DNA from: Mustelus asterias
Taxonomy: Eukaryota
Direction of reading: 5' to 3'
Assembly: GCF_964213995.1 (NCBI RefSeq)
Contig: NW_027590205.1
Location: 124,001 to 188,000, forward strand
Length of the DNA: 64,000 bases
Shown here one piece after another: positions 15,932 through 59,348 of this stretch (position 1 is its first letter; each line of letters begins with the position of its first letter). Position numbers and translations under genes: made by a program. The notes under the pieces are model-generated. The model was not told where the DNA came from. It worked only from the letters and a program-made list of their open reading frames with translations, and ran no database searches.

Positions 15932-16243
15932 AGGCGAAAGGCCCGGTAGAACCAAAATTGAGCGTCTTTTACCCGCCAGTGCCACGGGGAGCCACCGGCA
16001 CCGACACAGCTGCAGTATGCTTGGCCTCGGACTTCTCGCCCAACGCAATCCAGCTCTCCCTGTACACGGGATCCGGCCAGGAGGCCAATGTGACAAGATT
16101 CAGTGTCCTATTGGAGAGCGGGAATTACAGGAGCTCGGGTTTTCTCTCTTTCCCCCAATCCGAGGAATCGCCAAACATCACGTGCAAGGCATTTCACGAT
16201 AATCGAAATTACTCAGTAAACATCCCGCCCACAGCTGAAATTG
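15932..16243 (+). CDS. TRDC: TCR delta constant region exon 1 (Ig C domain)
   Basis: tttcag acceptor and GTAAGT donor, phase 1/1. Encodes (K)AKGPVEPKLSVFYPP...AAVCLASDFSP...SVLLESGNYRSSGFL...NITCKAFHDN with two Ig cysteines; the pattern resembles shark C-delta as I recall it, rather than C-alpha. Confidence 0.9.
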
Positions 16244-16679
16244 GTAAGTTTATTTTATTTTCGTTCACGTGATGTGGGTGTCCTTGGCTTGGCCAACATT
16301 TATTGCCCGTCCTAAATTGCCCTTCAGCAGAGGACATTTAAGAGTCACTTGCCGGCCAGACCATGTAAGGACGGCAGATTTCGTTCGCTAAAGGAAGTTA
16401 GTGAACCAGATGAGTTTTAATGATAATCGACAATGGTTTCAGGGTCATCATGAAACTTTTAATTCCAATTTTTAAAAAAATGTTCAAATTTCGCAGCTGC
16501 CATCCCCAGGTCAGCATTCTGGGTCGTTGGATTACCAGTCCAGTGACAATGCCACTGCGCCACTGCCTCCTCTCAGAATGTTTTATGACAGGAAGAACTT
16601 GCACTAAATATTATCCATCCTCTTAACGACCTAAGGACTCTCGGTGTCATCGTCACTCAAAGTGTAGTCTTTTTGAAAG

Positions 16680-17670
16680 GTTAGCTGACTAATGATTGAC
16701 GGTCAATTATCCTAGTCTGGGGACTTCACTGCAGGAGTTCCTCAGTGTCTCAGGCCTAACCAGCTTCAGGTGCTTCATCAATCACCTTCAATCCATTATA
16801 AGGTCAGAAGTTGGGATGTTCGCTGATGACTGAACAATTTTCAGCACCATTCGTGACACCTCAGATCTTGAAGTAGTGCATTACAAATGCAGCAATAGCT
16901 GGACAATACCTAGGCTTTGACTGACAAGCTACAAGTAACATTTGCGCCACACATGTTCCAGGCAATGACCAACTCCAACAGGAAAGAAGCTAACAACCGG
17001 CTCTTGACATTTAATGGCATTACCATGACTGAAACAAAGAACAAAGAAAATTACAGCACAGGAACAGGCCCTTCGGCCCTCCAAGCCTGCACCGACTATG
17101 CTGCCCGACTTAACTAAAACCCCTTTCCCTTCCGGGGACCATATCGCTCTATTCCCATCTTATTCATGTATTTGTCCAGATGTCCCTTAAAACTCCCTAT
17201 CGTATCTCCTTCCACTACCTCCCCCGGCAACGAGTTCCAGACACCCACCACCTTCTGTGTAAAAACTCTGCCTCGTACGTCTCCTTTAAACCTTGCCCCT
17301 CGCACCTTAAACCTATGCCCCCGAGTAATTGACTCTTCCACCCTGGGAAAAAGCTTCTAACTATCCACTCTGTCCATGCCTCTCATAATCCTGTAGACTT
17401 CTATCAGGTCAACCCCCACTATCAACATCCTGAGGGTTAACGTTGCTCAGAAACTGAACTGGACTATCCATATAAGTGCTGTAGCTGCAAGAGAATGTCG
17501 GAGATTGGGAATCCTGTGGTGAGTAACGTATCTCCTCATCCCCCAAATTCTCTGCCCCATCCACAAGACATAATCATGACTGTGGTAGTGTATTCGCCAC
17601 TTGCCTCGATGAATGCAGCTCCAATAACACTCAGACATTTGACACGACCCAGGACAAAGCAGCTCCGCTT
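16680..17670 (+). mobile_element. Older CR1-type LINE RT fragment, with a nested minus-strand CR1 3' end at about 17031-17410
   Basis: AGVPQ, EVGMFADD and QVTFAPH remnants; the host frame ITE|PTINIL is split by the insert. Confidence 0.75.
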
Positions 17671-17689
17671 GATTAACAGTGTGTTTATG

Positions 17690-18060
17690 AGTGTCACAAG
17701 TCGGCTTACATTAAAACTGCAATGAATTTATTGTGACAATCCCATAGTCGCCACACTCTGTGCCTGTTCGGGTTACACTGAGGGAGAATTTAGCATGGCC
17801 AATGCATCTAATCAGCACGTCTTTCGGACTGTGGGAGGAAACCGGAGCGCCCGGATCAAACCCACGCTGACACGAGGAAAACGTGCAGACTCTGCACAGA
17901 CAGTCACCCAAGCCCGGGAATCGAACACAGGTCCCTGACACTTTGGGGGGGGGGGGGGGGGAGAGGCGGGGGGGGGGGGGGGGGGGGGGGCGGAGGGGAG
18001 TGGCGGGGCGTGGGGGGGGGGGTGGCGGTGCAGCAGTACTAACCACTGTGCCACTGTGCG
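17690..18060 (-). mobile_element. HE1/V-SINE-type SINE with internal poly-G expansion
   Basis: Reverse complement of a tRNA-like head plus the core gtgggtttcctccgggtgctccggtttcctcccaca; G-runs at 17945-18027. Confidence 0.8.
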
Positions 18061-18978
18061 GCTCAAGCATTAAGTACTCTATTCACAAACATCCACTTCT
18101 TCCACCACCGAAGCACAATGGCAGCAGTGTGTGCCATCCACAAGATACACAGCAGTAACTCTCCAAGTCTCCTTCCGCTGAATCTTCCAAACTCACGACC
18201 GTTATCATCTCGGAGGACAAGGGCAGCAGATACCTGGGAACACCATCATCTGGACGTTACCCTCCATGTCACTCAGCATCCTGACTTGGAAATGTTTCGG
18301 CAGTTCCTTCACTGTCGCTGAGTCAAAATGGTGGAACTTCTTCCCTAACAGCACTGTGTGAGTACGTACCCCTGACAGACTGCAGAGGTTCAAGCAGGAG
18401 ACTCACAACCATCTTCTGAAGGGGGCAGTTAGGGATTGGCAATAAATGCTGACCTGCCAGCGATGTCCACATTCCGTAAATGAATAAAAATAATAAGAGC
18501 TAACTATTATAATTCAGGGCAGTGTGCAGGGCCCGTAACTGCTGGTACATCACCGAATTTAGGAACGTATTAAATACTAACCAGGGTACTGGAGAATCCC
18601 GTTCCTCTGGAGAAATGCCCTGATATCATTTAATCCACTGCAGAGCTGAAATCAGGCCTCGGTTTCACGACGTTTTCGGAAGACAGTGAAATACTGCACT
18701 GATGGAACGGCTCTGGATCCTGGGTTTTAATCCCTGATGGGGAATCGATCCTGCACTCTTTGAACTCAGAATTGGGCCGAACTAAATGGCAGAGCTACCA
18801 ATGTTTCTCCGTTGTGAATAATCAAGTGAACAAGTCCAATCGTGCTGTTTGATTCTTACTTTCTTCGTGGCTTTTGGTTATGACAACAACATTATTCAAA
18901 GTGATATTGAGAACAAACATGGTTACAGTAATGTCACTTGCTCACTTAATAAGTCAAATGTCATTTTTGCCCTTCCAG

Positions 18979-19041
18979 ATAAACCTAAATGCCCTACAGG
19001 TCGAAGTGATTCCTTGACAGAATCAAGTGACACGGAAAACG
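18979..19041 (+). CDS. TRDC: TCR delta constant region exon 2 (connecting peptide with interchain Cys)
   Basis: cttccag acceptor, GTATGT donor, 63 nt, phase 1/1; DKPKCPTGRSDSLTESSDTEN. Confidence 0.85.
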
Positions 19042-19072
19042 GTATGTGCTTTATTCAACATTTATCAAAGTA

Positions 19073-21170
19073 AAAGGCACTGATGAAAAGTGGAACTTTT
19101 TCAAGGAACAAATACTGGGTGTCCTTGATAGGTATGTCCCTGTCAGGCAGGGAGGAAATGGCCGAGTGAGGGAACCGTGGTTCACAAAAGAGGTGGAATG
19201 TCTTGTGAAAAGGAAGAGGGAAGCTTATGTCGGGATGAGGAAACAAGGTTCAGATGGCTCGATTGAGGGTTACAAGTTAGCAAGGAATGAGCTGAAAAAG
19301 GGGCTGAGGAGAGCTAGGAGGGGACATGAGAAGTCCTTGGCGGGTCGGATCAAGGAAAACCCCAAGGCTTTTTACTCTTATGTGAGGAATAAAAGAATGA
19401 CCAGGGTGAGGTTAGGGCCGGTCAAGGACAGTGGTGGGAACTTGTGTATGGAATCAGTAGAGATAGGCGAGGTGATGAATGAATACTTTTCTTCAGTGTT
19501 CACCAAGGAGAGGGGCCATGTTTTTCAGGAAGAGAAGGTGTTACAGGCTAATAGGCTGGAGGAAATAGATGTTCGGAGGGAGGATGTATTGGCAGTTTTG
19601 AATAAACTGAAGGTCGATAAGTCCCCTGGGCCTGATGAAATGTATCCTAGGATTCTTTGGGAGGCGAGGGATGAGATTGCAGAGCCTTTGGCTTTGATCT
19701 TTGGGTCCTCGCTGTCCACGGGGATGGTGCCAGAGGACTGGAGAGTGGCGAATGTTGTTCCTCTCTTTAAGAAAGGGAATAGAAATGACCCTGGTAATTA
19801 TAGGCCGGTTAGTCTGACTTCGGTGGTTGGTAAATTGATGGAAAAGGTCCTTAGGGATGGGATTTACGACCATTTAGAAAGATGCGGATTAATCCGGGAT
19901 AGTCAGCACGGATTTGTGAAGGGCAAATCGTGCCTCACAAATTTGATAGAATTTTTTGAGGAGGTAACTAGGTGTGTTGATGAAGGTAGGGCGGTTGATG
20001 TCATATACATGGATTTTAGTAAGGCGTTTGATAAGGTCCCCCATGGTCGGCTTATGATGAAAGTAAGGAGGTGTGGGATAGAGGGAAAGTTGGCCGATTG
20101 GATAGGTAACTGGCTATCTGATCGAAGACAGAGGGTGGTGGTGGATGGAAAATTTTCGGACTGGAGGCAGGTTGCTAGCGGAGTGCCGCAGGGATCGGTG
20201 CTTGGTCCTCTGCTCTTTGTGATTTTTATTAATGACTTAGAGGAGGGGGCTGAAGGGTGGATCAGTAAATTTGCTGATGACACCAAGATTGGTGGAGTAG
20301 TGGATGAGGTGGAGGGCTGTTGTAGGCTGCAAAGAGACATAGATAGGATGCAAAGCTGGGCTGAAAAATGGCAAATGGAGTTTAACCCTGATAAATGTGA
20401 GGTGATTCATTTTGGTAGGACTAATTTAAATGTGGATTACAGGGTCAAAGGTAGGGTTCTGAAGACTGTGGAGGAACCGAGAGATCTTGGGGTCCATATC
20501 CACAGATCTCTAAAGGTTGCCACTCAAGTGGATAGAGCTATGAAGAAGGCATATAGTGTGTTAGCTTTTATTAACAGGGGGTTGGAGTTTAAGAGCCGTG
20601 GGGTTATGCTGCAACTGTACAGGACCTTGGTGAGACCGCATTTGGAATATTGTGTGCAGTTCTGGTCACCTCACTATAAGAAGGATGTGGAAGCGCTGGA
20701 AAGAGTGCAGAGGAGATTTACCAGGATGCTGCCTGGTTTGGAGTGTCGGTCTTATGAGGAAAGGTTGAGGGAGCTGGGGCTGTTCTCTCTGGAGCGGAGG
20801 AGATTGAGGGGAGACTTAATAGAGGTTTATAAAATGATGAAGGGGATAGATCGAGTGAACGTTCAAAGACTATTTCCTCGGGTGGATGGAGCTATTACAA
20901 GGGGGCATAACTATAGGGTTCATGGTGGGAGATATAGGAAGGATATCAGAGGTAGGTTCTTCACGCAGAGAGTGGTTGGGGTGTGGAATGGACTGCCTGC
21001 AGTGATAGTGGAGTCAGACACTTTAGGAACATTTAAGCGGTTATTGGATAGGCACATGGAGCACACCAGGATGGTAGGGAGTGGGATAGCTTGATCTTGG
21101 TTTCAGATGAAGGTCGGCACAACATCGTGGGCCGAAGGGCCTGTTCTGTGCTGTAATGTTCTATGTTCTA
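19073..21170 (+). mobile_element. Young 5'-truncated CR1 LINE with an uninterrupted RT reading frame
   Basis: About 670 stop-free codons (ORF 19046-21094) containing all RT motifs; tail atgttctatgttcta. Confidence 0.96.
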
Positions 21171-21581
21171 AAATACTTGCAAATAGACGGATTGATAAGT
21201 GGACAAATAGGCACGGATACAGACCCGGAGATTGAATGATAAACATATAGTGAGATGGGGAAAAAGATAGATTGTCACACAGAGTGAGGGAGAGAGATAT
21301 ATCAATCGAGGGGGATAGCGAGAGAGGAGGAGAGGCGGGGAGAGAGAGAGAAACTCAGAGTGAAAGAGAGATGAAGATAGATAGACAGGCAAGCAGACGG
21401 TCGGACGGACGGACTGACAGAGATGGACAGACGGACGGACGGACAGGGATGGACAGACGGACGAAAGTCAAGCTGTTAGATAATGGAAAAAATATCACAT
21501 TAGTGGTATACAGTTGTTTTTCAATACCAAATCATATATCCATTAAACCAGATCTATCATTTGTTTCTCTTATTTTGGCAG

Positions 21582-21691
21582 ATCGACTGAGGGTGAACTT
21601 TTTGTCTTTGACGGTGATGGGGCTAAGAATTTTGTTTTTCAAGAGCATTGTCTTCAATGTCATGATGACGGCCAGGGTGTGGCTATTTTGA
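21582..21691 (+). CDS. TRDC: TCR delta constant region exon 3 (transmembrane/cytoplasmic)
   Basis: DRLRVNFLSLTVMGLRILFFKSIVFNVMMTARVWLF*, with the R and K TM residues typical of alpha/delta chains; donor GTAAGG at 21693, just after the stop. Confidence 0.93.
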
Positions 21692-22902
21692 GGTAAGGTC
21701 GGTCACCTGAATGCGTGCCAAGAAAGACAAACTGTGATGAACAATGACCATTGACGGGATCTCGCGAGGCCACTGTTAAGGCAGACGCTGAAACTAACCC
21801 GTGGAGTGAGCATTAACTTGGATGCATTTAGACAAATGAACTCTTACTCCAGTGCCCCATCCTCATCGCTTTTCATCCCTCCCTTGCCACCGCACCACCG
21901 CCCACCCCCGCCCCCGCCGCCCCCCCCCCCCCCCGCCCCCCCCCCCCCCCCCCCCGCCCGCCAACCCCCGCTCCCAATCGCAGCCTTGACTTCTTAAACC
22001 TCTCCAGATTTTTGTTTAATTATGGGTGTCACTGACTAGCCTAACTTTTTCCGCCCATCCCTTGGTCTTGAGCTGTGTGGCTCTTTCGGAGAGTCGGTGC
22101 AGACTCTATGGGCCAAATCGCATCCTTCTGCACTGTCGGGGTTCTTGTGCAATTGCAGTGGCTTCTGAGAATATTATTGGAGAATGTTAATGGAGACCCT
22201 AAAGATACAAGGTGTTCTTTGCTTGCTGACTCTTTGATGTGCTACTACTGTTGCTCCTTCCATTCCAAACAGAACTGCATTGGACGATGAAATGGATTCA
22301 GGTGTGAACTCATTGACTGGGGCATCAAAATCCAGAGGCTTCCTGATCAGAAGTTCCGCTTCAAGCAATTCAATCTCGCTTGTTTTAAATGGCGACTTAA
22401 CTTTAAAAGACCCTCATTTCGGTAACTTTTTTCCACTGTTATTTTGATTTGAAACTCGCGGTTCTGCGTGAATTCTACTGCTTATGCTACATAAACATTT
22501 CAATTATGCATTTCAGCAACAGCGTGGAGCTAACATTTATATGGTTTCTGCCTGCATTAGTGTCGGAGACATTTTTGAAAACAGCATTTTCAATTTTAGG
22601 ACGTATAGAACTTCGATTTTTATATTCTTTGCTTAGAATAGTAGAATCCTATTCCAGAGAAAGCAGCCAATCAGCCCATAGTGACAATGGCAGCCCTTTA
22701 CAGGGCAATCTAAGTAATGGCACGTCACATGTTCCTTTTGGTTGTTTTACTCTGGTAGTTATTTTAAACATTGTATTTTAATGCATGCAATTTAAGAGCG
22801 TAAGATACATTAAACCAGCAAGGATCTGATTGGATTTTCATCAAACTTTTAGACTGTTGCCAAGGTGATATTCTTTCTCCTGTACTTAATCTTGGACTCC
22901 AG

Positions 22903-23375
22903 ATTTTCCTCCCAGTGCCACGGAGGCACCAAACCCCAGCCTGTACATCTGGACCCTTAGAGATAATCGAGCAACCACTTGCCACCGTGCAGAGCTTTAT
23001 CATGACACGGCATTTCACAAGTAAGATGAACAAGAGTTTTTGAACATCTCGCCATGAGCTTAGCCTAAACTCAGGTTATTGCTCTCAGGTTATTTCACAG
23101 ATGGGACATTCATACACATTTAAGATCATCCGGTTAGTCAGGGGAAGCGAGAGTTATGGGGCTAAGGTGGTAAAGTGGAGTTGAGGATAATATCAAACTC
23201 GCCATGATTTCATTGAAAGGCGAAGCAGCTCCGGTGGGCCGAATGGTCTACTTCTGCTCCTCCGTCTTATGCTCTTCTGGTTCGTTAATCACACCTTTGT
23301 GCCTATCTGTCACCTTGTTATTTTTTCATATGCATCACTTATAATGTTTAATAAATTTGCAGTCTTTAATGAAGG
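22903..23375 (+). other. TRDC: Probable untranslated last exon of TRDC with polyA signal
   Basis: The donor after the stop implies a 3' UTR exon; pyrimidine-rich acceptors end at 22902 and 22915; AATAAA at 23350-23355 is followed by GT-rich sequence. Boundaries uncertain. Confidence 0.5.
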
Positions 23376-23965
23376 GTGTCTTCTGTTTCTTTGTTAACGT
23401 GATGGCAAGACATGCATTTGGTTTGGTTAACAGAGAGCTCTTGTAGTCGCGCAGCACAAATGAAGGCCACTCAGCCCATCATGAGGATACCGGCCCCCCA
23501 TGGCAGATCCCGCCAATTGGAGCCAATTTATTTCTTGAAGTCCAACAATTGAAAGTCCACAGGTTTGAAGCCCCTGGTCTCAGGGCTGAGGCTCATTCGC
23601 TCGATGGTCATTCCAGTACAAAGAACAAGGAACAAAAAAAATTACAGCACAGAAACAGGGCCTTCGCCGCCCACCCCCCACCCCCAACACCCGCCCCCCC
23701 AAGCCTGCACCGACCATGCTGCCCGACTGAACTAAAACCCCCTATCCTTCCGGGAACCATATCCCTCTATTTCCATCCTATTCATGTATTTGTCCAGACG
23801 CCCTTTAAAACTAACAATTGTATCTGCTTCCATTACCTTCCCAAGCAGCGAATTCCAGGCACCCACCGCCTTCTGTGTAAAAAAACTTGCCTCGTACTTC
23901 TCTTTTAAAACTTGCCCATCGCACCTTAAACCTATGCCCCCTAGTAATTGACTCTTCCACCCTGC

Positions 23966-34810: not shown

Positions 34811-34814
34811 AAAA

Positions 34815-38510: not shown

Positions 38511-39849
38511 AAAAAATCAAGATGGCGTCGGACCATAGCGACTTATTGCATGCTGTGCCCCTCATCTCTCTAATGCTATCTTTTACTCACGGTCTTTGCT
38601 TCTAAAACTCTATTCTAATTCTTTTGAAATCGATAACAATGTTTGAATTAAATTGACCTTTCTCTACCCCCTAGCTATGACTGTAACATTACATTCTGCA
38701 ATCTCTCCTTTCCTTCTCTATGTGCGTGTAATGCCGTGTTTGTGAAACCTACCTTTCCACTCACGTAATGAAGGAGCAGCGCTCCGAAAGCTCGTGATTC
38801 CAAATAAACCTTAACCTGGCGTTTTGAGCCTTCTTACTGTTCTCTATGTGCGGTATGCTTTGTTTGTATAGCGCGCAAGAAACAATACTTTTCACTGCAT
38901 ACTAATACACATGACAATAATAAATCAAATACAACAAAATCAAAAACATATACTCTCAGAAGAACACACAGAGACACACACACACAGACATACACACTAT
39001 TACGGACAGTCTCACAAACACAGAGACAGAGACCATAAAGTCTTGATGTCAATTTCAGTTTACTCAACCTGCTGGGTAACGGAAGCAAACTTAAAACCGG
39101 TGTGTGGGTTTTATTGTGTGATGAGATAATGTATAAATGTATCACCATAGCCCAGAGTGGGGTTGTAGTTGATCATTTATCTGCTGTCTGTACCCCTGAA
39201 CAAATGTCAAATTGGAGAGGTTATCAAGTTTGTGTTATAATGTAATGATGTGAAATATGTGAGAGAATAATTGGTGTGATAAAGGGTGGAAAACAAACTT
39301 GGGGAATGAGACTGAAGCTGCTGTGCAGACTGAATAGTTCTTGTTGTGTGAATGGAGGGACACATGTAGGGACGGATGGAGGGAGGAAGGAATGGACGGA
39401 TCGAAGGACCGATCGAGGGAGGGAGCAATGGATGGAGGGATGGATGGGGGTGACCTGGGGGAAGTCATTGGGCAGAGACTGTGCTTGCTGCTGTTTCCCC
39501 TCCTGGCGCCAGGGGTCACTGGGACACTCCCTGCAGCTGCTGCTGCTGCTCCTCCCAATGTCACATCTTGGCCGTACCCTGGACCAGCTGCAGCTCTTTG
39601 GCGGAACATCAGGAGCCAGTGGTGGGGAAGGACTGGCCGTCCTATTTCAGTGACGTCACCACCAGCCCCGACACCCGCCGTTTATTTTAAGAAAAAAAAC
39701 GACTGTTCAGAAATGGCGAAAGTGACTGAAATTCTGAACCAGACAGGCCACCGGGAGGTGATTTATATGTAAATAAAAATACAATTATTAATTTAATATG
39801 AAAGATGCCGAAGGCGAAACTGCACATGCGCCGTATGTTCTCTGCGGGA

Positions 39850-40270
39850 ACATGGATACAGAACAGGTTTAGCCATAGAAGACAGAGGGTAGCGGTAGAG
39901 GGGTGATTTTCTGACTGGAAGGCTGTGACTAGCCATGATCCACAGGGATTAGTTCCGGAACCTTTGCTGTTCGTAGTATATGTAAATGATTTGGAGGAAA
40001 ATGTAGCTGGTATAATTGTAAGTTCACAGACGACACACAAATGTGTGGAGTTGCGGAGAGTGAAGAGGATTGTCAGAGGATACAGCTACAGCAAAAGATA
40101 AACCGGTTGGAGACTGGGGCGGAAAAATGACAGATGGAGTTTAATCTGGACAAGTGTGAGATAATGCATTTTGGAAGGTCCAATGCATGTCGGGATTATA
40201 TAGGAAAGGTAGAACCCTTAGGCGTATTGATAAGCAGAGAGATCTCGACGTACATATCCACCGATCACTG
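39850..40270 (+). mobile_element. Decayed CR1 RT fragment
   Basis: RQRVAVEG, FTDDT and QMEFN.DKCEIMHFG remnants. Confidence 0.75.
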
Positions 40271-40929: not shown

Positions 40930-41178
40930 GCAGCAGAAACACAATCGGAGAGAAGCGTCCTGGTGACATTTGAGGAACAGTGTTCCTTTGTACAAAGTAG
41001 GCAATATTTTTCCACATCCTCCGAGCTATAAATCCTCATTAAATATCTCGGAGTTTCGCTGGGATGCAGGAACAGAGTAGAGAGAGTAGCTGTCGAGTAT
41101 TTACAATCCAGCATTATGCTCTGTGCTTGGAGAACCCTTAATTCAGATTGATCATTGGACACAGAATCATCACTATTT
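40930..41178 (-). pseudogene. TCR V pseudogene (heavily deleted)
   Basis: After a ttgcag acceptor: DSVSNDQSELRVLQAQSIMLDCKYST...PSETPRYLMRIY...NVTRTLLSDC. Trp41, YYC and the RSS are lost. A possible leader remnant lies at 41447-41482. Confidence 0.7.
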
Positions 41179-42582: not shown

Positions 42583-42594
42583 ATCCATTTATAT

Positions 42595-46657: not shown

Positions 46658-46703
46658 ATGCGGCTCCCCGTTTTCACTCTGATCTGGGTGACATTCATTG
46701 TTG
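46658..46703 (+). CDS. TCR V leader exon
   Basis: MRLPVFTLIWVTFIV, 46 nt, phase-1 GTAAGT donor. Confidence 0.88.
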
Positions 46704-47408
46704 GTAAGTTTAACATTTTAAAAATGAGTTATTTTCTGGAGGAATAAAGTTGAAAAGCAGGACATTCATGTTATACAGGTACTGGACATGCCGTAGAACA
46801 CAAATGAATTCTTGCGAGTGGTTTTAGTCTTTTGAAAATAGATTCGAAAAGCACACTGAAAAGGCGATTTCGAGAAGTGGTACTCGGATTGGGAGATGAG
46901 AGCTATCAGAATGCAAGATTATGATTACTTTCTCGACTGACCAAAGAAACTAACGCAAATCTGACTGATCTATTTATAATGATAACGAGGATTGGTGTGG
47001 TGGACGGGGAGAGGATGATTCCACTTGTAGGAGGAAGCCAAATATATGTCCCACAATTCCAATGAAACAAAGAGATCAACTGGGAATCGGAGAGAAACAG
47101 CTTTAGAAAGAGTTGGGTAGAATGTGACTCATATTAACACAATGAACACTTGAGGAGAGGAGCAAATACTTATTTAAAGGTAAACTAAACTAAACAGCTG
47201 AGGAAGAAAGGGACAAATGCATTGAGAAGAGGCGAGAGGGAGGAATCTCCAGGGGATTGTAAACGAGAACATAGATCAGTTGGAGAGAATGTGGTATGAT
47301 TCAATACATTCAATACATATTTTTATGTTACACTGTCAGTGAATTTTCTCCCTTAGTTCAATTGAACTTTTAATCAATGTTTTTCCTTTCTTTAACCGTG
47401 TGTTTCAG

Positions 47409-47688
47409 ATCTGAGCCATGGAGATTCTGTTACTCAGCGGGAATCCTCACTCACACGGACAGAGGGAGAAGATGTCACTTTAAACTGCACCTTTACCGAC
47501 GATGCTTATTATTTATTTTGGTATCGTCAATACCCAGGAAAACAGCCTGAGTTTGCAGTCCGGAGAGACAAGAAGGGCGGTTTTGAATTAAAGGCGGATT
47601 TCGCTCGGACCCGGTTTTCTGATTCAGTCCAGTCTATTTCGGAGCTGCGGCTGTCTGACACCGCGGTCTATTACTGTGCACAGAGTCT
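47409..47688 (+). CDS. TCR alpha/delta-type V exon, open frame, with an 8-aa FR3 deletion
   Basis: tttcag acceptor; DLSHGDSVTQRESSLTRTEGEDVTLNCTFTDDAYYLFWYRQYPGKQPEFAVRRDKKGGFELKADFARTRFSDSVQSISELRLSDTAVYYCAQS. Absent from the ORF track. Confidence 0.92.
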
Positions 47689-47727
47689 CACAGTGATGAG
47701 AACGAGTGAAATCCTCGTACAAAAACT
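47689..47727 (+). other. 23-bp-spacer RSS
   Basis: CACAGTG + 23 nt + ACAAAAACT. Confidence 0.95.
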
Positions 47728-49091: not shown

Positions 49092-49568
49092 GGTTTTTGT
49101 ACGGACTAACTGTGTCTCTGTAACTGCGGTTCAGCGCACACTGTTACAGATACACGGCAGAGTCAGAGACACGGACCCCGGTGATATTTAATGGAGCTGT
49201 TTTCTTGTCTCTGTCCAAATTAGCAGAAAACTGGTCCGAAAAATCAGGAGACTTATCCCCCTTCCCCTGGCCGTAACTTTTCAATAAATATCTCGGAGCT
49301 TCTCCGGGATACAGGATGTACCAGAATAGAGTTTGGTCAACGTACTTATCTTTATAACTGCAGTTCAAAATTACCGTCTGTACTTCCTGAACCGTTAATT
49401 CAGGCGGCTCCTGGGAAACTGAAGTTTGGCCATTGGTTCCTGTAACAACATATAGACTGTGTGAGAAATCTGTGAGTGAATATAACCCATTGAACACACA
49501 CTGAGGATTTGAGCTCAGACTCACGGGGCAGCATGTCCATTATCATCAGTAGAACACGCAGGGAACAT
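49092..49568 (-). pseudogene. TCR alpha/delta-type V pseudogene (inverted), with leader and RSS
   Basis: Leader 49568-49525 is 44 nt and frameshifted. V exon 49439-49129 reads GTNGQTSVSQEPPELTVQE..LNCSY..LFWY..DSAVYL*QCAL. RSS is cgcagtt-21-acaaaaacc. Confidence 0.9.
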
Positions 49569-50457: not shown

Positions 50458-50496
50458 AGTTTTTGTACGAGGTCCGCGGGAGCCTCATTTACTGTG
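50458..50496 (-). other. 23-bp-spacer RSS of the inverted V
   Basis: Minus strand CACAGTA + 23 nt + ACAAAAACT. Confidence 0.92.
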
Positions 50497-50983
50497 GGTC
50501 TGAGTGCACAGTAATACACGGTGTTGTCTAACATCTTCAAATCTTTCATGGACAAGTGAAAAGTGTTTTGTGTCTGGCTGAGATTCCCGCTGAAATGTTT
50601 AAAGCCGGGAGCCGTATCGGTAAATCCATAACTATCGGCTCTGAGCAGATACTGAGGAGCTCGGTGTGGATACTGGCGATGCCAGAACAGGACATAGACT
50701 GCAACTGAACTCGATACAGAGTAACTGCAGGGTATTGCTGAATCTTCACTCTCTGCTGCTTCAACTCCTGGTTCTGACTGAGACACTGAGTCACCGTTAC
50801 TCATGTCTGAAAATAGACAACAGACACGCAGCGGGTTAGAAGGAGTAACAACAACGGAATAATCGCCGAGAAATGGAAATGGGCAATGAATATGGTGATT
50901 GGCGGATTTCATTCAAAGGTTCAAAATGACCGACCGATGACCAGGGCAATAACCAGAGACAGACAGAGCTGTCATAGCTCCAT
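50497..50983 (-). pseudogene. TCR alpha/delta-type V (inverted): open V exon 50806-50497, leader 50983-50935 with a premature stop
   Basis: V exon DMSNGDSVSQSEPGV..IPCSYSV..LFWHRQYP..PQYLLR..DNTVYYCALRP; leader MEL*QLCLSLVIALVI with TGA at 50974-50972. Confidence 0.88.
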
Positions 50984-51249
50984 AGTTCCAGTCTGAACAC
51001 CAGAGACAGACTGTCTGCATAAGACCTGGAAATTGAGAAGTTGAAACAGTCAGTGGACTGTTATGACGTCCAATGTGACTCCGTCTCTCCGCCCATTTTT
51101 AATCTTCCAACAATCGCTCCCTCCTGAAGGGAATCGTGATTTTTCATAAGTGATCAGAGAGCGCCCTCCCGTGGACAGCACTGCTGCATATTGGAAACAG
51201 ACACACGCACGGCAACCTGCAAAGACTGACACATATCTAGATAATAGAA

Positions 51250-51470
51250 TCATAGAATCATAGAATTTGTACGGTATGAGGTTTGTACGGTATGAGGTTA
51301 CGGGAATAGGGCCTATCCAGGCCCTATTCCCGTAACCTCATACATTAACCCCGCTAATCTCCCTGACACTGGGGTCAATTTAGCATGGCCAATCAAACTA
51401 ACCTGCACATCTTTGGACCGTGGGAGGAAACCGGAGCACCCGAGGAAACCCACGCAGAGACGGAGAGAGC
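51250..51470 (-). mobile_element. Rearranged HE1/V-SINE fragment containing a 25-bp perfect inverted repeat
   Basis: V-SINE core on the minus strand; hairpin arms at 51290-51314 and 51319-51343. Confidence 0.75.
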
Positions 51471-52074
51471 AGATACACACACGGCCACGTGCAAAGACCA
51501 ACACGTGTAAGGATATATAACCATATAGATATATGCCCAGACACTGACATCAATTCTAACGTCCCTCGTTATAAATCCAGAATTATTCTGTAGATTTCTG
51601 ACACATTAGTCTGAGTTGCTAACTATGAAAATACATGAATAACTCCAACTCCGTGTTCACTGGAAGCCTCGTGAACCGCACAGAATCAACAAAAGCATAG
51701 ACACAGGGACAAGTAAACACAGTGATCGATTCTCAAACTGATCGACTCAAACATAGACACACAGACAATCACTGAGGAAGATAAACAATCAGATTAACAC
51801 AGCCACTGACACACTCAAGAGAAGTGCACCCATGGACAATGTCAAAAGCGTACCAGCTCCAGAGTAACTTTCTGAACTGGAATTCCCTAGAGTCATGTCA
51901 GTGCGGCAATATCGTGTTAGATATTCATTGCGATGGAACTGTCCATTTTAACAACAGGAACTGCCAGAAATCTATTTCTCATCAATGGTGATCATTAATT
52001 GATGACTCCACAGTGGACACTTTTGGAGAATAAGCAATAATGGATGTACTTATTTTAACAGCCAAACACATATC

Positions 52075-52370
52075 TTGTTTAAAGTTTATTTATTAATGTC
52101 ACAAGTAGGATTACATTAATACTGCAATGAAGTTACTGTGAAAATCCCCTAGTCGCCATACTCCGCCACCTGTTCGGGTACACTAAGGGAGAAATGTAGC
52201 ATAGCAATGCACCTAACCAGCACGTGTTTCAGATTGTGGGAGGAAACTGGAGCAAATCCACACAGAAACAGGAAGAACGTGCAAACTCCACTCAGACCCA
52301 AGCCAGGAATCAAACCCGAGTCCCTGGCGCTGTGAGGCAGCAGCGTGCCATTGTGCTACCGTGCCACCCC
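52075..52370 (-). mobile_element. HE1/V-SINE-type SINE
   Basis: Same subfamily as 17690-18060 and 33137-33440. Confidence 0.75.
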
Positions 52371-52959
52371 GTATGAGGTCGGTGTAGGTAAGACAGATTC
52401 CCCACCATTCTCGAGGTTGCCAGATCGGATGTTCGGGACACAGGAGGACAACACAAGGAGACTGCTTCAGGTATAGGTGATTCATTCTCCTCTGTCATAT
52501 TCCACACTCTGTGGAAAGTTGCGGAGTTAATATTATATATAATTCAGAAATAATGAGGAGATGCTTTATCCGATTAAACTCGTTTTGTAAATTCGATTTG
52601 AAATCAATTGCATAAATAAATATATGTTTACATTGAAAACTATATTGGGAAGCTATATCCAATACTTTATGCCATTGGGTCAGCGAAACGTTGTTACTTA
52701 AAGCAAACTGTACATGGATTCCACAGAAACTCCTTCTTCAAATGGGGATTGGACAATGACTTGAAAGGGAGAAAAATCAACTTCATGGAATGAGAGGAGG
52801 AAATTGAAATGAGAACAAAGAACAGTGCAGCACAGGAACAGGCCCTTCGGCCCACCAAGCCCGCACCGACACGTCAGTTTGGTAGCTCGTCATAAAACAG
52901 CTGGCATAGGCATGGTGGGTTGAAGGGACTCTTATTGTTCTTTGCCATTGCCAACCATT

Positions 52960-54392
52960 TTCAATCATTACAACAATCTGAGGTCCCTGTCTGCTTCAAG
53001 AAGACGACCATCATCCCGGTACCTAAGAAAAATCAAGCAGCGTGTCTTAATAACTATCGGCCGGTGGCTCTGACATCCATCATTATGAAGTGCTTTGAAA
53101 GGTTTGTCATGGCACGAATCAATTCCAGCCTCCCGGACTACCTGGATCCACTACAGTTGCCTATCGCCGCAACAGGTCCACAGCAGACGGCATTTTCCTG
53201 GCCTTGCACTCAACCCTGGATCACCTAGATAACAAGGACACACTCCTATTTATTGACCACAGCTCAGTCTTCAAAACTATTATTCCCACGAAACTCATCT
53301 CCAAACTCCGTGGCCTGGGCCTCTGCACCACCTCTGTGACTGGATCCTGAACTTCCTAACTCACAGACCACAATCTGTAAGGATAGACAACAACACCTCC
53401 TCCACAATCATCCTCAACACCAGTACCCAACAAGGCTGTTTTCTCAGCCCCCGACTATACTCCTTATACACCTATGACTGTGTGACCAAATTCCCCTCCA
53501 ATTCGATTTTCAAGTTTGCTGACGACACCACTATAGTGGGTCGGGTCTCAAACAATGATGAGACAGAGTACAGGAATGAGGTAGAGAATCTGGTGAATTG
53601 GTGCAGCAACAATAATCTCTCCCGCCATGCCAACAAAACGAAGGAGATTGTCATCGACTTCAGGAAGCGGAAAGGAGAACATGCCCCTGTCTACATCAAC
53701 GGGGACGAAGTAGAAAGGGTCGAGAGCTTCAGGTTTTTAGGTGTCCAGACCACCAACTATCTGTCCTGGTTCCTCCCCCCCCCCCCCCCCAACCCCCCCA
53801 CCCCTTCCCCAATGCCGACACTATAGTTAAGAAACCCACCAACGCCTCTACTTCCTCAGAAGACTAAGGAAATTTGGCATGTCAACTACGACTCTCACCA
53901 ACTTTTACAGATGTACCATAGAAAGCATTCTTTCTGGCTGTGTCACAGCTTGGCATTGCTCCTGCTCTGCTCAAGACTGCAAGGAACTACAAAAGGTCGT
54001 GAATGTGCCCAATACATCACACAAACCATCCTCCCATCCATTGAATCTGTCTACACTTCCGCTGCCTCGGCAAAGCGGCCAGCATAATTAAGGACTCCAT
54101 GTCCCCGGGCATTCTCTCTTTCACCTTCTTCCTTCGGGAAAAAGATACAAAAGTCTGAGGTCACATACCAACCGGCTCAAGAATAGCTTCTTCCCTGCTG
54201 CTGTCAGACGTTTGAATGGACTTACCTTGCATTAAGCTGATCTTTCTCTGCACCCTAGCTATGACTGTAACACTGCATTCTGCACACTCTCATTTCCTTC
54301 TCTATGAACGGTATGTTTTGCCTGTATAGCGCGCAAGAAACAATACTTTTCGCTGCATGTTAATACATGTGACAATAATAAATCAAATCAAA
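52960..54392 (+). mobile_element. Rex1/Babar-type LINE, 5'-truncated and decayed
   Basis: [54 protein letters not shown] and FYRCTIESIL; (aaatc)n tail. Confidence 0.85.
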
Positions 54393-54480
54393 GTCATTCT
54401 TGGATCAATATGTCTACAGCAGTCCCAATGAATGTTGCAACATTTCAAGAGAGTTCCATTGTGTCCTACGGACGCCAGCA

Positions 54481-54552
54481 GTTTCTGTAGTGTAATGGTG
54501 GTTGCATTTAACTCAGACACAAAAGTCCCTAGTTCAAAACCATGCCGAAATA
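54481..54552 (+). pseudogene. tRNA-Val pseudogene (decayed copy)
   Basis: gtttctgtagtgtaatggt...ctagttcaaaaccatgccgaaata aligns with the copy at 55583; anticodon arm destroyed. Confidence 0.7.
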
Positions 54553-55582
54553 TTATTAACATTTGTTCATTAAGAGTGAGGGAAGTTTACATGATTGAAA
54601 TTTGTTGCTCAACATTATCCGAAACTCAATATTAAAGCCATGTTATCTTTGCTCTGTCCTCGGCCTCAAAATCTTTCAGCAAAATCAGAGATCTTGTATT
54701 TTTATGACTTAATGAGAGGAAATAAATGTTGTTGTTTTGACACCGTGGACATATCAGCAACTCATTCAGTCCACAACAGAATTTAATGGCTTTGTTGATG
54801 CAGACTAACAAAGTGAATCATCATCTGAACCATGTCTAATAGTATTGTGTGCTCAAAAAGGCAGACACAAGTGAAACTGTAACTGAACTAGAGGAATTGG
54901 CGCACATTGCGCGGCACCATTATTTTAACATCGTTCTTCAGAGTAAACAAAGAGGGAAAACGACTCAGACGGTTGAGGAAATAGAGAATCAGTGCGGATG
55001 TACTGGACTTTCCTACAGCTGAATGGGATTTAGACGTCTGAGTGTTTCATACAGAGAATAAAGAGGGGTCAGGTATAACTAACAAATCATTCTTAAATCT
55101 ATTCCCTTTAAAGATATTTGATTTTGTTCAAAAGCTGATTGTGGTCAATCTCAATGAAGCACCGTGACATGTGTATTACCCAGTGATTCGATTCCTTTCG
55201 TTGGTCAGCCATGTTTGAAATTCAATGTTGTCTATTTCGGAGATATGTCATTCAGAATGAGGAGATATGTAATTAATAAAAATATATTAATATTAAACAT
55301 TGAACAACGAACAAATACTGGGTAGAATTGGTTGAAATTATTCGAAGGAAGATGAGAATGATGCATTAATGATTGAGCAGAAATCATTGCTTCCTTCGAT
55401 ATTTGCCCGACGACCGCTTTTAAAGGTTGAAGTTCAAGATAACTTGAGAAATCAGGTTGAAAGAAACGATTTTTGTCTTGTATTCAGTGACATGGGCTCT
55501 CAGTATAACCATTCGAACCTGCAGCAACACAGTGGAGTTGAACATTGTGGCCAGGCCAATTGGCGGCGCTATGCAATCAGTT

Positions 55583-55655
55583 GTTTCTGTTGTGTAGTGG
55601 TTATCACGTTCACCCCACACGCGAAAGTTCCCCGGTTCGAAACTGGGCAGAAACA
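55583..55655 (+). tRNA. tRNA-Val(CAC), probably defective
   Basis: 73 nt, close to vertebrate tRNA-Val-CAC; acceptor stem GTTTCTG/CAGAAAC pairs and the B box GGTTCGAAAC is intact, but there is an A-C mismatch in the anticodon stem and C at position 33. Confidence 0.8.
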
Positions 55656-56809
55656 TTCACTTTATTTAGTGTGAGGGAAGTTTTGCATGGTCGTTGTTGC
55701 TGAACATTATCCGATTCTCCATGTTGCAGCCGTGTTATCTTTGCTCGGAACTCGGCCACAAATGCTTTCAGCAAAATCAGAAATGCTGTATTTTAAGACG
55801 CAATGAGGAAATAAAAGTTTGTACTTTTAACACCGTGCGCATATTAGCAACTTGTTCAGTCCATAACAGAATTTAAAGGATGTATAAATGCAGACTAACA
55901 TAGTTAATCACCATCTGAAACATGTGTAATAGTAGTGTGTGCTCATAAAGACAGACACAAGTGAAAGTGTAACTGAACTAGAGGAAATGGCGCACATTTC
56001 CCGGCAGCATATTTTTAAAATTGTTCTTCATAATAAAGAAATGGAAAAAAAAATCACTGAGGCAGATGAGTAAATCGAAACTCAGCGTAGATCTGCTGGA
56101 CTTTCCTATAGATGAACGGGATTGAGGCGCCAGAATGTTTCACATGCAGAATAAAGAGGGATCAAGTATAACTAGCAAATCATTATTAAATCTTTTCCCT
56201 TTAAAGATATTTGATATTGTTTAAAAGCTGACTGTCTCAAATAGGCACCATGGGATGTGTATTACCCAGTGACTCGATTTCTTTTATTGGTCAGTCAAGT
56301 TTGCAATTCAATGTTGCATATTCCCGAGATATTCAATTCAGAATGAAGACGTATGTATTAAATACATGTATTAATATTTAATATCGAATAACAAAACAAA
56401 TATTGAGTAACTAGCCAACAATACAAGTCTGGATGGCCCTTCATCAGAGCTAAGAGCAAAGAAAAGCAGAAAAGATTTAAATTATGGGTGGAAGGCGGGT
56501 GCTGTAAGTGGACAAAGGGAATCCAAATTAGGATAAAGACGGCTGAGAGAGATGCTAAAAATGTCCATTAAGCAATCAGAATGGCAGAGCAGAGGTAAAT
56601 GTGGTTAAGGCAGTTGCCCTGAAAGAGGAGTGTTGGGGGGGGGGGGGGGGGGGGGCGGGGGGTGCGTGGGAGGGAGGCAAGAAGGAGAGCAGGAATCAAG
56701 AAATAGAAAAATGGAAGCGAGAAAGAAGTATGATAAAAATGGGTGAATGAGATGAAAAGAAGAAACAGAATGAAATGAAATAAATGGAAAGGGGATAAAC
56801 GTGCAGGGG

Positions 56810-57550
56810 AGAGTTCATGCTCTGAAGTTGTTGAACTCAATGTTTAGTCCGGAAGGCTGTAAAGTGTTCAATCAAAAGATGAGGTGCTGTCCCTCCAGTT
56901 TGCGTTGGGGTTCACTAGAACATTGCAAAGTGCCAAGGATGGACATGTGGACAGGAGAGCAGGGTGGTGTGTTGAAGCGGCAAGAACTGGAAGTTCTGGG
57001 TCCTGCTTGCAGATGGACTGAAGGTGTTCAGCAAAGCGATCACCCAGTTTGTGTTTGGTCTCTCCAATGTAGGAGAGTAGACTTCATGGGGAGGAGCGAA
57101 TGCAATAGACTAGACTGAAGGAGATGCATGTGAAGCGCTGCTTCACCTGAAAAGGGTGTTCAGGACTTGGGATGGTGAGCAGGGAGGAGGTAAAGGGGCA
57201 GGTGTTGCACCCTCTACCATTGCATGGGAAGATGCTGTGGGCAGAGGATGGGATGTTGGGTGGGATGGAGGCGTGGACCAGGCTGTCCCAGAGACAACCT
57301 TCCGCGTGAAATGCTGTTGGGTGTGAGGGGTGAGGTGAAGATGTGTTGAGGAGTGGCTTCATGCTGGAATTGGCAGCAATGGCGGAGGATGATACTTTGA
57401 ACACGGAGGCTGGTCTCTGGTCTGGTAAAACGTGAGGACGTGGGAACCCTGTCCTCTTTCTAGGAGGGAGGGGAGGGGGTGCGAGCAGTGGCCTGGGGGA
57501 TGAGTTGGACACAGTCAAGAGCCCTGTCAACCACAGTGGATGGACTCCGC
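56810..57550 (-). mobile_element. Penelope-like element fragment (GIY-YIG endonuclease)
   Basis: Minus strand C..CNTCPF..FQVKQRFTCIS..LVYCI, then LYIGETKHKLGDRFAEHL. Confidence 0.8.
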
Positions 57551-57959
57551 ACAGTCACCCAAGGCAAGAATCAAATCCAGATCCCAAGCACTGTAAATGC
57601 TAACCACTGTTCCACCCGGAAGGATCAGCCTGGTGGTAGCTTTACTCATGATATCCAGTTGCACTGGAGGTAGAATGGGAAGGAAATAAAAGTAAAATAC
57701 TGCGGATGTTGGAATTGGGAAATTTAAACTGAAAATACTGGATAAACTCAGCAGACCTGGCGGCATCTGTGGAGAAACCTATTAACAATGGATTCTTATA
57801 ATTTTGGTTGCTGAATGAGGAGACAAGGTCCTTTCGGTTTTATTGACGTTTTATGCGGCGTTACGGTTGAAGCGATAAAAGCAATATTTTAAATATCTCT
57901 GAAATTAAGTGATGTCCATCTTTGTGTGGGGCAGACGTCCTCCGTTTGGACAGAAGATG

Positions 57960-58330
57960 AAGAACCAATGTGCCCTTAACAAAGATGGCGGCGACGTGGG
58001 GGCGGGGCAATGGGCGGTGTACGCAGAACGCTGAGGAGGTTGGGATCGCACATGCGCATTGCAGCGGAGTGTTTTGTTGACGGAAGCGCGCGGGTTCTTC
58101 TCCGGATCGGAATCAGATTTGAAAGGGGGAACGGTTAACGGTGGCAGGCGTTGCCATGGCGGCAGGGGCGGGGCTCGCCAACAGCGCGCGCTGGCACACG
58201 TGGACCCTCGAGCTCAACCTGAGCGACAGTGGCAGCAGGTGCGGAGGCCGCGCGGGGAGCCGGGGGCTCGAGTAGGAGGCAAGCCGGGTCAGCTCGCCTC
58301 TCCAGCGGAGGCGACCTGGGGATGTGACAC
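57960..58330 (+). promoter_or_regulatory. CpG-rich housekeeping promoter of EMC4
   Basis: GC/CpG-rich; YY1-type AAGATGGCGGCG 57982-57993, GC boxes, NRF1-type CGCACATGCGCA 58047-58058. Confidence 0.7.
58156..58238 (+). CDS. EMC4: ER membrane protein complex subunit 4, exon 1
   Basis: Kozak gccATGG; MAAGAGLANSARWHTWTLELNLSDSGS(R); phase-2 donor. Confidence 0.82.
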
Positions 58331-58876
58331 CAACCCAAAACTTCTCAACTTCGGGTTATTCACGTCTCTTTTACCCCTCACCGAGCTCCTCAGCACAAAG
58401 CAGCCCCTCAAATCCCCCACAAACCACTCAGACCCCACTTGGCATCTTTTCCCCAGGTCATAACCCTGAGATGCCCTTTTGGTTTCAGCCCCTCCACCTG
58501 GTCAGGTGCCAACTGCGGTGGTGGTTGGAGGAACGATTGGTCGTTTCCAGGGCCGGGTGCTGAACTGGATCTCTCTCAATATCCCTCAGTTTGTTTTCAA
58601 GATACAATTTGGTACATCTGGTGATTTGTCACTTTGTCCCTAAATGGAGGGCAAGCGGATTGGCACCCTGATTATCAATTCACACTAAATCCACTTCTGC
58701 ATCCCTCCATTACCCTGGCAGTTTGGTACACGCAATGGCAGTGTGTGTCTGAGGTTTGCCCAAGCTTTAATTCGTGCTGGCACTATTGCCACCACGTTGG
58801 GGTCCTCAACAGAGAGACTCCCTCTTGAGAAAAGGTCTTGAAAGGGTGACCAATTTGTGTTTTCTGTTTCTCATAG

Positions 58877-58988
58877 GAGCCGTGATCAACAGTGTGGCCA
58901 GAGAGACTCCACGTGCCCAGTCGCATGTTCGGACAAACAGCTACCGGACATCTGCGTCCAAGAAACAGACCGGATCCTGGTCGAGAAA
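58877..58988 (+). CDS. EMC4: EMC4 exon 2
   Basis: [37 protein letters not shown]; canonical splice sites; phases match exons 1 and 3. Confidence 0.9.
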
Positions 58989-59194
58989 GTAAGTTGGATT
59001 TGAATGTGTCTTTAGTGTGTGACTGACAACGCCCCTGGTTTGTCCACGGTGGTGAAGTACCTTGGTGAACCACAGCAGCCTGTGTGATAAAGGGTTAATC
59101 ATCATCCTTACTTCCAGGCCTGGGTATAAGATCAGCATATGGCCTCCCCTAACCGGCCCCCTTTACTGATACACTGCTCACTTTCTGTTTTCAG

Positions 59195-59348
59195 TCCTGC
59201 TGGGACATCGCCTTGGACCCACTGAAACAGTTGCCCATGAATCTGTTCATCATGTACATGGCTGGCAACACCATCTCCATCCTCCCTATCATGATGGTGT
59301 GCATGATGGCCTGGAGACCCATACAGGCCTTGATGTCCATGTCTGCAA
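59195..59348 (+). CDS. EMC4: EMC4 exon 3 (later exons not found in the window)
   Basis: [51 protein letters not shown], the conserved EMC4/TMEM85 core. Confidence 0.95.

Follow-up and report, generated by a model that had tools for sequence, protein, structure and literature searches.

The window analyzed here, a 64,000-nucleotide stretch of the Mustelus asterias assembly (contig NW_027590205.1, positions 124,001 to 188,000), contains the 3′ half of a compact TCR-delta unit. J-delta segments and a C-delta gene are followed by a repeat-rich spacer, V-alpha/delta segments, a tRNA gene, and an EMC4 paralogue. In window coordinates, the features are as follows:

949..1035, + strand: J-delta pseudogene (FGRGNKFT) with a degenerate RSS; no canonical donor seen
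1546..1640, + strand: J-delta pseudogene with an in-frame stop ahead of FGRG
1815..1888, + strand: J-delta remnant (GTQLTVVP); donor present, FG motif lost
7581..7658, + strand: J-delta with 12-RSS (YAKLTFGSGTQVTVVP) and GT donor
8419..8506, + strand: J-delta with 12-RSS (NYATRKLIFGSGTKLTVEP) and GT donor
15932..16243, + strand: C-delta exon 1, C1-set domain with CLASDFSP; 19 copies in the assembly
18979..19041, + strand: C-delta connecting-peptide exon, carrying the interchain Cys
21582..21692, + strand: C-delta transmembrane exon, with Arg and Lys in the TM and the stop codon
22273..23370, + strand: C-delta 3′ UTR exon, AATAAA at ~23350; present in 18 of 19 copies, the 19th cut by a contig end
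23400..41000, no strand: repeat-rich spacer (LINEs, SINEs, CA tracts) without J, C, or signal joint
41028..41165, − strand: V-alpha/delta fragment, pseudogene
46658..47727, + strand: V1, V-alpha/delta, with leader (46658-46703), V exon (47409-47688), and 23-RSS
49132..49440, − strand: V2, V-alpha/delta pseudogene lacking an RSS and interrupted by a stop at the second Cys
50458..50983, − strand: V3, inverted V-alpha/delta with 23-RSS, a probable pseudogene because of a TGA in leader codon 4
55582..55656, + strand: tRNA-Val(CAC) gene
58156..59348, + strand: EMC4 paralogue, exons 1-3 in frame, among ~100 co-amplified copies

The original prediction that the exon at 15932 encodes C-delta rather than C-alpha was upheld by signature, BLASTP, and tree. 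The C-delta exons of the window have AG/GT sites, and exon 1 was assigned to the C1-set domain by Pfam; a PDB search returned generic Ig C1 matches only. The trd signature CLxxxFxP is present and the tra signature CLxTD(x)F is absent in the C exon, both signatures being those given in the methods of PMC10322711. In BLASTP, a protein named "TCR delta constant" gave an E value of 1e-12 for C-delta versus 3e-4 for a J-alpha-linked C, and in the tree both J-alpha-linked C genes of the assembly split from all C-delta copies at 100/100. The exon resembles named C-delta of sharks/rays more than it does C-alpha, the one reference named delta being Hemitrygon P0015, by automatic annotation. A D segment with 12/23 RSS (C173:118368-118387) and 12-RSS J segments lie upstream. 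The probability that the C of the window is really C-alpha is negligible, given that a D segment and a NAR cassette precede it, that it bears the trd signature, and that its J segments are few. C-alpha genes proper, ~29% identical to a whale shark C-delta query, were located elsewhere behind 39 and 147 J segments, and a C-alpha identity was rejected on these separate arrays, the signature, the tree split, and the E values.

The whole unit spans 53 kb and is arranged as NAR V, germline-joined D-J, supporting V-delta, IgH-like V, D-delta, J-deltas, and C-delta; other copies repeat the same plan. Its NAR-TCR portion (C173:94375-99717) has the expected order, with a NAR-type V-D-J and a supporting V-delta before D-delta as well as J-delta and C-delta. 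The label NAR is drawn from this V-D-J-V arrangement together with what PMC12227049 and PMC5931798 describe, and the database models for the three-domain NAR-TCR chain (P0004-P0008) are predictions.

Downstream of C-delta, the spacer aligns colinearly, at ~80-97%, to the DNA that follows other C-delta copies. An RSS scan of 23.4-58.1 kb at ≤2 mismatches found just two 23-RSSs (47689, + strand; 50496, − strand). Within the same interval, none of nine relaxed 12-RSS-like sites was followed by the [FW][GA]xG motif, and the sole J-like motif (29060, − strand) has a stop directly ahead and no RSS. A second C exon was found neither there nor in the 69 kb past the window end, so the lack of J-alpha/C-alpha first noted between C-delta and EMC4 holds and extends into the next 69 kb. 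The "V cluster" proposed for this interval does contain V segments, but there are four and they are mostly decayed; V1 itself has a 24-nt in-frame deletion in FR3 relative to its paralogues. EMC4 had been read as the flank of the locus. No match to the last exon of the window's copy was found, and this exon appears absent. EMC4 exons match 137 places on the contig set of the C-delta units, many with stops, and therefore cannot serve as a synteny marker here; as one of ~100 co-amplified paralogues, the gene was rejected as a conserved flank or locus border.

Copies and positions of C-delta and C-alpha were sought in the assembly, as had been suggested. Such searches score the best candidates, and among these (43) C-delta gave 19 matches; the whale shark query returned the same 19 and one weak C-alpha match, and a 3′ UTR search recovered 18 C-delta 3′ UTRs. 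Where a canonical TRA/TRD translocon has a single C-delta, the assembly holds 19 copies. Each of the 19 keeps an open frame across three coding exons with AG/GT sites, and together they represent 16 distinct coding sequences and 15 distinct proteins. Three lie on a single 20-Mb sequence shared with one TRA array, and the other 16 are on shorter contigs that are not ordered relative to the TRA arrays. Several copies may be alleles, since some differ by merely 0.04-0.6% in intron 1; counted from the assembled copies, the floor is about 10 C-delta loci. Four of 21 listed sequencing runs were compared; no RNA run was listed as holding the exon, which argues neither for nor against expression. In runs X5 and X6, from other organisms, one unbroken contig covered the C exon in each, which hints weakly that C-delta is single there.

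Fifteen of the 19 units have their own NAR-TCR cassette, with the NAR V 16-58 kb upstream on the same strand and a NAR J and supporting V in every case. The remaining four comprise one with an IgM-type VH, one with a dead V-alpha/delta, and two cut by contig ends. J-deltas were listed or scanned upstream in 18 of 19 (the exception being C850, whose J is not listed), with 1-5 J segments per unit by pattern. D-delta is unjoined with 12/23 RSS in 11 units, joined in 7, and past the contig end in 1. Two properties of miniclusters were examined. The cassettes are self-contained: V, D, J region, and C were mapped in 17 of 19, with 2 cut by contig ends. Germline joining is also present, with V(D)J joins in 9 of 18 readable units and seven different junctions, one of them common to three units. 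In all units seen, the supporting V is unjoined or V-D joined only, and a fully pre-joined V of the marsupial type was not found. The C138 unit reads VH-(DH-D-delta)-J-C-delta, and IgM-type V-D-D-J-C clusters share contigs with C-delta units; one of these clusters stops 9 kb short of a NAR V.

Two separate J-alpha/C-alpha arrays were identified, on C71 (39 J) and C546 (147 J). The Pfam PF09291 profile missed shark C-alpha, which was located through a J pattern. Upstream of the C71 array, 256 gap-free kb contain no V or C-delta; on C546, a V field and 75 kb without C-delta lie in front of the J segments. Neither the whale shark query nor local tblastn found a diverged canonical C-delta near J-alpha. 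The canonical order (C-delta, then J-alpha and C-alpha) was not encountered in the window, in the 69 kb beyond it, or in front of either J-alpha array; behind other copies, the C115 contig ends inside the 3′ end of the C-delta gene and 13 kb are visible behind C3311. Another origin considered was reintegration of the circle excised by a germline deletion between V-alpha and J-alpha. Six scanned regions contained no head-to-head RSS signal joint, and the DNA behind C-delta shares no unique homology with the DNA before either J-alpha array; this origin is not supported. The original interpretation is partly supported: the TRD unit does stand apart from J-alpha/C-alpha, and both arrays lack a C-delta in front. 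Its placement at the end of one rearranged TRA/TRD locus gives way to membership in a set of 19 assembled units, a number that also replaces the alternative of a second stand-alone TRD as in birds.

Taken together, the findings make it probable that the window is the 3′ half of one of 19 assembled TCR-delta units, which are located among IgM-type clusters, separate from both J-alpha/C-alpha arrays, and are likely to rearrange semi-autonomously, in the manner of antibody miniclusters. An ancestral rearrangement may have moved a D-J-C-delta block away from J-alpha, together with the NAR-TCR cassette preceding it and, on its other side, part of the V-alpha/delta field plus EMC4; segmental duplication of the antigen-receptor region could then have multiplied the block, and RAG-type joining in germ cells would have fixed partial rearrangements in the 9 readable units that have them. 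Within a single unit, a T cell would connect NAR V with D-J and link the supporting V to D-delta and J-delta, and splicing to that unit's own C-delta would give a three-domain NAR-TCR delta chain predicted to pair with TCR-gamma. V or VH segments from elsewhere can probably enter units too, judging from two germline joins that came from outside the cassette (V-alpha/delta to D-delta and IgH D to D-delta). The broader proposal has roughly even chances: that this shark lineage abandoned the translocon for TCR-delta, uncoupled TRD from TRA, and now carries 10-19 working NAR-TCR miniclusters edited by germline RAG, among them a fixed hybrid unit of IgM VH with TCR-delta. One sevengill shark scaffold carries two different C-delta models, which suggests that a similar event occurred more than once in sharks. 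No earlier report of a multi-unit TRD was found in the literature searched, whose scope did not include Deiss 2019, Ott 2021, and Criscitiello 2006.

The units may instead be passengers of general segmental duplication, because EMC4 and IgH clusters, as well as V segments, are amplified on the same contigs; the copies would then be real but mostly neutral, with one or few working in a repeat-rich antigen-receptor region. The pN/pS among C-delta copies is 0.77, and amino-acid constraint on them is therefore weak. Class A copies are young (1.7% mean distance in intron 1), and in the C71:11.04 Mb and C401 units a dead V is joined to D-delta. Against this, no C-delta gene of the 19 is disabled, versus ~6.5 expected at intron rates (rough P 0.0015), and coding indels among the copies are only 3 and 6 nt. 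All 15 NAR V exons and the inspected RSSs are also open or near consensus, while neighboring V and EMC4 copies have decayed. We consider neutral passengers unlikely, and still less probable that the units are repeated D-J-C ends in one multi-megabase TRA/TRD/IgH field, where any V joins any D-delta by long deletion or inversion. Table S1 of PMC12227049 does list, for other sharks, V-alpha/delta segments and C-less NAR-TCR cassettes scattered across megabases; this assembly has 84 NAR V-like matches, with cassettes lacking C scattered, and the two joins from outside the cassette described above fit such a field. That 15 of 19 units retain a same-strand NAR cassette of their own no more than 58 kb away accords poorly with such a field, as does the absence of any other V in the 94 kb upstream of the window's unit. 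Four units are closed to outside V segments because the supporting V of the mapped NAR cassette is already fused to D-delta.

An assembly artefact, with uncollapsed haplotypes or misjoins inflating one or two loci and a canonical C-delta/J-alpha junction hidden in a gap, is very improbable. It could draw on the many copies on short contigs, on the closest pairs being 0.04-0.2% apart in intron 1, and on a single 200-N gap in C546 ~9 kb before the J array; both flanks of that gap, however, are colinear with gap-free C71. A diploid has two alleles per locus, yet there are 16 distinct coding sequences, three copies share one sequence, and the classes are 14.6% apart in intron 1. Even the closest C-delta pairs carry different upstream cassettes, and contigs of both classes were recovered from a public sequencing run that may derive from the assembled animal (17/17 and 6/6 diagnostic sites).

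In mammals, TRA rearrangement usually deletes TRD. Separation of TRD from TRA in semi-autonomous miniclusters would remove this deletion, raising the question of how the alpha-beta versus gamma-delta choice is made and how exclusion operates among many delta loci. Copy-specific markers offer a means to test autonomous cluster rearrangement, RAG action on TCR genes in germ cells, and the origin of TCR-mu-like loci. Reviews describe shark TCR genes as translocons and miniclusters as limited to shark Ig genes (PMC6795676, PMC12227049), and among jawed vertebrates TRD is reported to be almost always within TRA or next to it (PMC12698447). Both rules are broken by a genome in which 10-19 TRD units are intact and two TRA arrays lack TRD; if the reading is correct, this genome would be a present-day counterpart to the way TCR-mu arose, and cluster versus translocon layout would not be fixed by B versus T lineage.

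The shark TRA/TRD locus, with NAR-TCR and IgH-like V (TAILV), is published as a translocon (PMC12227049, PMC6795676), and Table S1 of PMC12227049 gives one TRD row, then TRA, in both stingray and catshark. The M. asterias units share with it the NAR V-D-J and supporting V-delta, an IgH-like V before D-delta (the same kind precedes C-delta in the catshark homologue P0013), C-delta, linkage to IgM clusters, and scattered V-alpha/delta. They differ from that published description in that each of 19 C-delta genes has a D-J of its own and, in most cases, a separate NAR cassette; no C-delta was seen before J-alpha. Marsupial and monotreme TCR-mu, as described in PMC7615758, likewise has repeated V-D-J-V-C clusters, a three-domain delta-derived chain, a position apart from the conventional TRA/D order, and germline-joined elements. 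There, 5-9 clusters use a VH-related V, with a fully pre-joined second V in marsupials, beside a retained TRA/D; M. asterias instead combines a NAR-type V with C-delta itself as the constant gene, its joins are of varied kinds and only partial, and a canonical TRD was not seen. This likeness is an analogy in organization only. Shark IgH/IgL miniclusters (PMC2193156, PMC6795676) are similar in their many V-D-J-C cassettes, part of them partly germline-joined, and in trimmed, RSS-free junctions, but are described as B-cell receptor genes with one J each, whereas the TCR-delta units have 1-5 J and two rearranging V domains. Duck TCR-delta2 is a stand-alone VH-D-J-C-delta cluster outside TRA/D, comparable to the C138 unit; in the account of PMC5278385, the avian second TRD is a single additional cluster alongside an intact TRA/D locus, compared with 19 units in M. 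asterias. The newt resembles M. asterias in having TRD apart from TRA and a duplicated TRA (PMC12698447), with 1-2 TRD clusters on another chromosome, in contrast to the many units found here, three of which share a 20-Mb sequence with a TRA array.

The finding proved real: the constant gene of the window belongs to a TRD/NAR-TCR minicluster, one member of a family that has many copies and is uncoupled from TRA. The original prediction had placed no J-alpha or C-alpha between C-delta and EMC4, and this was borne out by a scan of window 23.4-58.1 kb for RSSs, J segments, and C genes, in which neither a J with a 12-RSS nor a second C was found. The only good RSSs in this interval are two 23-RSSs, both of V segments, and the four V segments behind C-delta are decayed for the most part. 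J-alpha and C-alpha in canonical order were also looked for just past the interval, and no J or C was found in the 69 kb beyond the window end. The anatomy of the unit on C173, the contig that holds the window, is as follows.

Segments of the C173 unit
C173:94375, same strand as C-delta, NAR-type V with a 22-spacer RSS
C173:95100, same strand as C-delta, NAR J
C173:99416, same strand as C-delta, supporting V-delta with five tandem 23-RSSs
C173:106109-106402, same strand as C-delta, V-like exon (open V-set) without an RSS
C173:108597, same strand as C-delta, IgH-like V, dead
C173:110798, same strand as C-delta, IgH-like V, intact
C173:118368, same strand as C-delta, single D-delta with 12/23 RSSs
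Window 949-1888, three decayed J segments
Window 7581 and 8419, two intact J segments with 12-RSS
Window 15932 to about 23370, constant gene with four exons

Three further J segments lie upstream of the window on the same strand as C-delta, and no V segments were found in the initial 94 kb of C173. The RSS-less V-set exon is 95-100% conserved among the five clusters found to contain it. Behind the supporting V (C173:99717-100000) a 61-bp unit occurs five times in tandem, every repeat forming a perfect 23-RSS; the copy at C71:7.09 Mb has two such units. A 2.1-kb LINE insertion occupies the connecting-peptide/TM intron (window 19073-21170), and four of the 19 copies (C173, C106, C115, and C123) have an intron this long. 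The C173 exon is nearest that of C401, yet C401 lacks the long intron, which suggests exchange between copies. Farther downstream, a segment of ~770-1100 bp that includes a tRNA-Val(CAC) gene is duplicated in tandem (window 54481-56409), its partner near 54480 being a decayed tRNA-like sequence. A GC-rich element (window 39450-39850) contains TGACGTCA as a motif, has a second match on C546 at ~18.5 kb, and is possibly a promoter relic.

The closest database proteins are from Mustelus asterias (82-94% identity), followed by Heptranchias (53%) and Rhincodon (48%). Several bear the automatic name "alpha chain"; despite these names, the gene is C-delta by its sequence, as originally assigned. It contains the trd signature CLxxxFxP but not the tra signature, both as defined in PMC10322711, and it matches a stingray "T cell receptor delta constant" protein at E 1e-12, versus 3e-4 for a J-alpha-linked C. 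In a C-domain tree of 24 rows (19 copies, three other sharks, and two J-alpha-linked C genes), the J-alpha-linked pair separates from all others with 100/100 support.

The TRA genes lie elsewhere. A J pattern search gave 242 matches (100 of them listed) versus 12 for a control, and located an array of 39 J on C71 at 18.37-18.42 Mb (locus 18.366-18.432 Mb), with a C-alpha carrying a CLATDYF motif and a TM exon. A second C-alpha, 74% identical to the first, lies on C546 (138-242 kb) behind 147 J, an array that explains 126 of the 142 matches outside those listed. V, D, and C-delta are absent from 256 gap-free kb upstream of the C71 array, which hold only C2H2 zinc-finger ORFs and repeats, and no V was found in ~140 kb downstream of the locus, which has a C2H2 zinc-finger array next to it. 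On C546, a V field is separated from J-alpha by 75 kb that contain no C-delta; both flanks of its single 200-N gap are colinear with gap-free C71, so the gap is unlikely to hide a locus.

The original prediction had left copy number to an assembly search. The C exon gave 19 matches at 82-100% (43/43 candidates scored), and C-alpha the two loci just described; a whale shark query returned the same 19 places plus one weak C-alpha hit, and the C-delta 3' UTR gave 18 matches. The C, connecting-peptide, and TM exons are present in every one of the 19 copies, all in open frames and bounded by AG/GT sites. The copies amount to 16 different coding sequences that encode 15 different proteins, and their indels are of 3 and 6 nt only. 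In intron 1, the 16 copies of class A differ from one another by a mean of 1.7%, down to 0.04% for the closest pair; three class B copies differ from them by 14.6%. Contigs from a public run, which may be the assembled animal's, match class B at 17/17 and class A at 6/6 diagnostic sites. We infer the exact copy number from the assembly; one 20-Mb sequence carries three copies, and about ten loci remain even if every locus was assembled twice.

In 15/19 copies a NAR V lies in the same orientation 16-58 kb before C-delta (best 150 of 583 candidates scored), and fetched DNA contained NAR J and a supporting V in all 15. At C138 the NAR V is replaced by an intact IgM-type VH that shares 97% identity with its counterpart in an IgM-type cluster; the C71:11.04 Mb copy has a dead V-alpha/delta in front instead, and the C401 and C3311 units are truncated by contig ends. 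Scoring of the best 40 of 143 candidates placed a V resembling V1, the V-alpha/delta segment behind the window C-delta, 27-35 kb behind C-delta in 13/19 copies, with two copies truncated by contig ends. In each of the six other copies compared, the DNA that follows C-delta runs colinear with the window, and the split of C-delta from J-alpha would therefore be older than the amplification; the C115 contig terminates within its C-delta gene, a caveat for DNA following that copy.

D-delta is unjoined in 11 units and already joined in 7; in 1 it cannot be seen. Nine of the 18 readable units contain joined segments, through seven different junctions.

Joined segments in C-delta units
C173, and C90: NAR D-J
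C96/C119/C436: supporting V to D-delta, one junction common to three units
C850, and C401: supporting V to D-delta
C71:11.02 Mb: V-alpha/delta to D-delta
C138: IgH-type D to D-delta

The fused C173 NAR D-J has an open frame; relative to the unjoined C71:7.09 Mb copy, both inner RSSs and ~390 bp are missing, with ~3 nt trimmed per end. The junction common to C96, C119, and C436 predates duplication and is hence inherited, and the others are probably germline because they are located in consensus contigs. Autonomous rearrangement of the units is likely. C138:217.2-218.6 kb contains an intact IgM-type VH with a 23-RSS and a D-delta to which an IgH-type D is fused; J-delta and C-delta follow, and the whole is apparently an inherited Ig-TCR hybrid locus. 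A germline-joined IgH VDJ pseudogene with an FR1 insertion (C71:10998.6-10999.3 kb) lies 25 kb before a J-delta set.

C1-set exons, including IgM-type V-D-D-J-C clusters, share contigs with the C-delta units. EMC4 exons gave 137 matches genome-wide, including ~100 exon-3 copies, many with stops or without the last exon; no match to the last exon was found for the window copy (58156-59348). The best-scoring copy (C71:20.3 Mb; 20.31-20.33 Mb), with its last exon 25 kb later, is probably the parent gene. Multiplication of C1-set clusters and EMC4 on C-delta contigs indicates that the entire antigen-receptor region was segmentally amplified. The pN/pS among C-delta copies is 0.77, indicative of weak constraint. 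None of 19 is disabled, against ~2.8 frameshifts and 3.7 nonsense changes expected at intron rates (P 0.0015, a rough estimate that ignores tree structure), unlike the decayed neighbouring V and EMC4 copies. The units are presumably expressed.

Two predicted Heptranchias perlo models (P0010 and P0014), whose contigs have the same listed length, represent distinct C-delta genes; their C domains are identical at 84/103 positions and group in a separate clade (97/91). In one of these predicted models, C-delta is spliced to a supporting V and a NAR-type J. The pair hints at an independent TRD duplication. In runs of two other organisms, a single unbroken contig spanned the C exon in each case, a faint hint of a single copy there. 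Table S1 of PMC12227049 is based on gene models, with no systematic C-delta count, and gives stingray and catshark one TRD row each, then TRA. No report of many C-delta genes in a shark was found in the available portions of PMC12227049, PMC10322711, PMC12698447, PMC7615758, PMC6795676, PMC5931798, PMC3964593, PMC5278385, and PMC2193156. PMC12227049 terms TCR-alpha/delta a translocon, and PMC2193156 describes RAG-like joining of Ig genes in shark germ cells.
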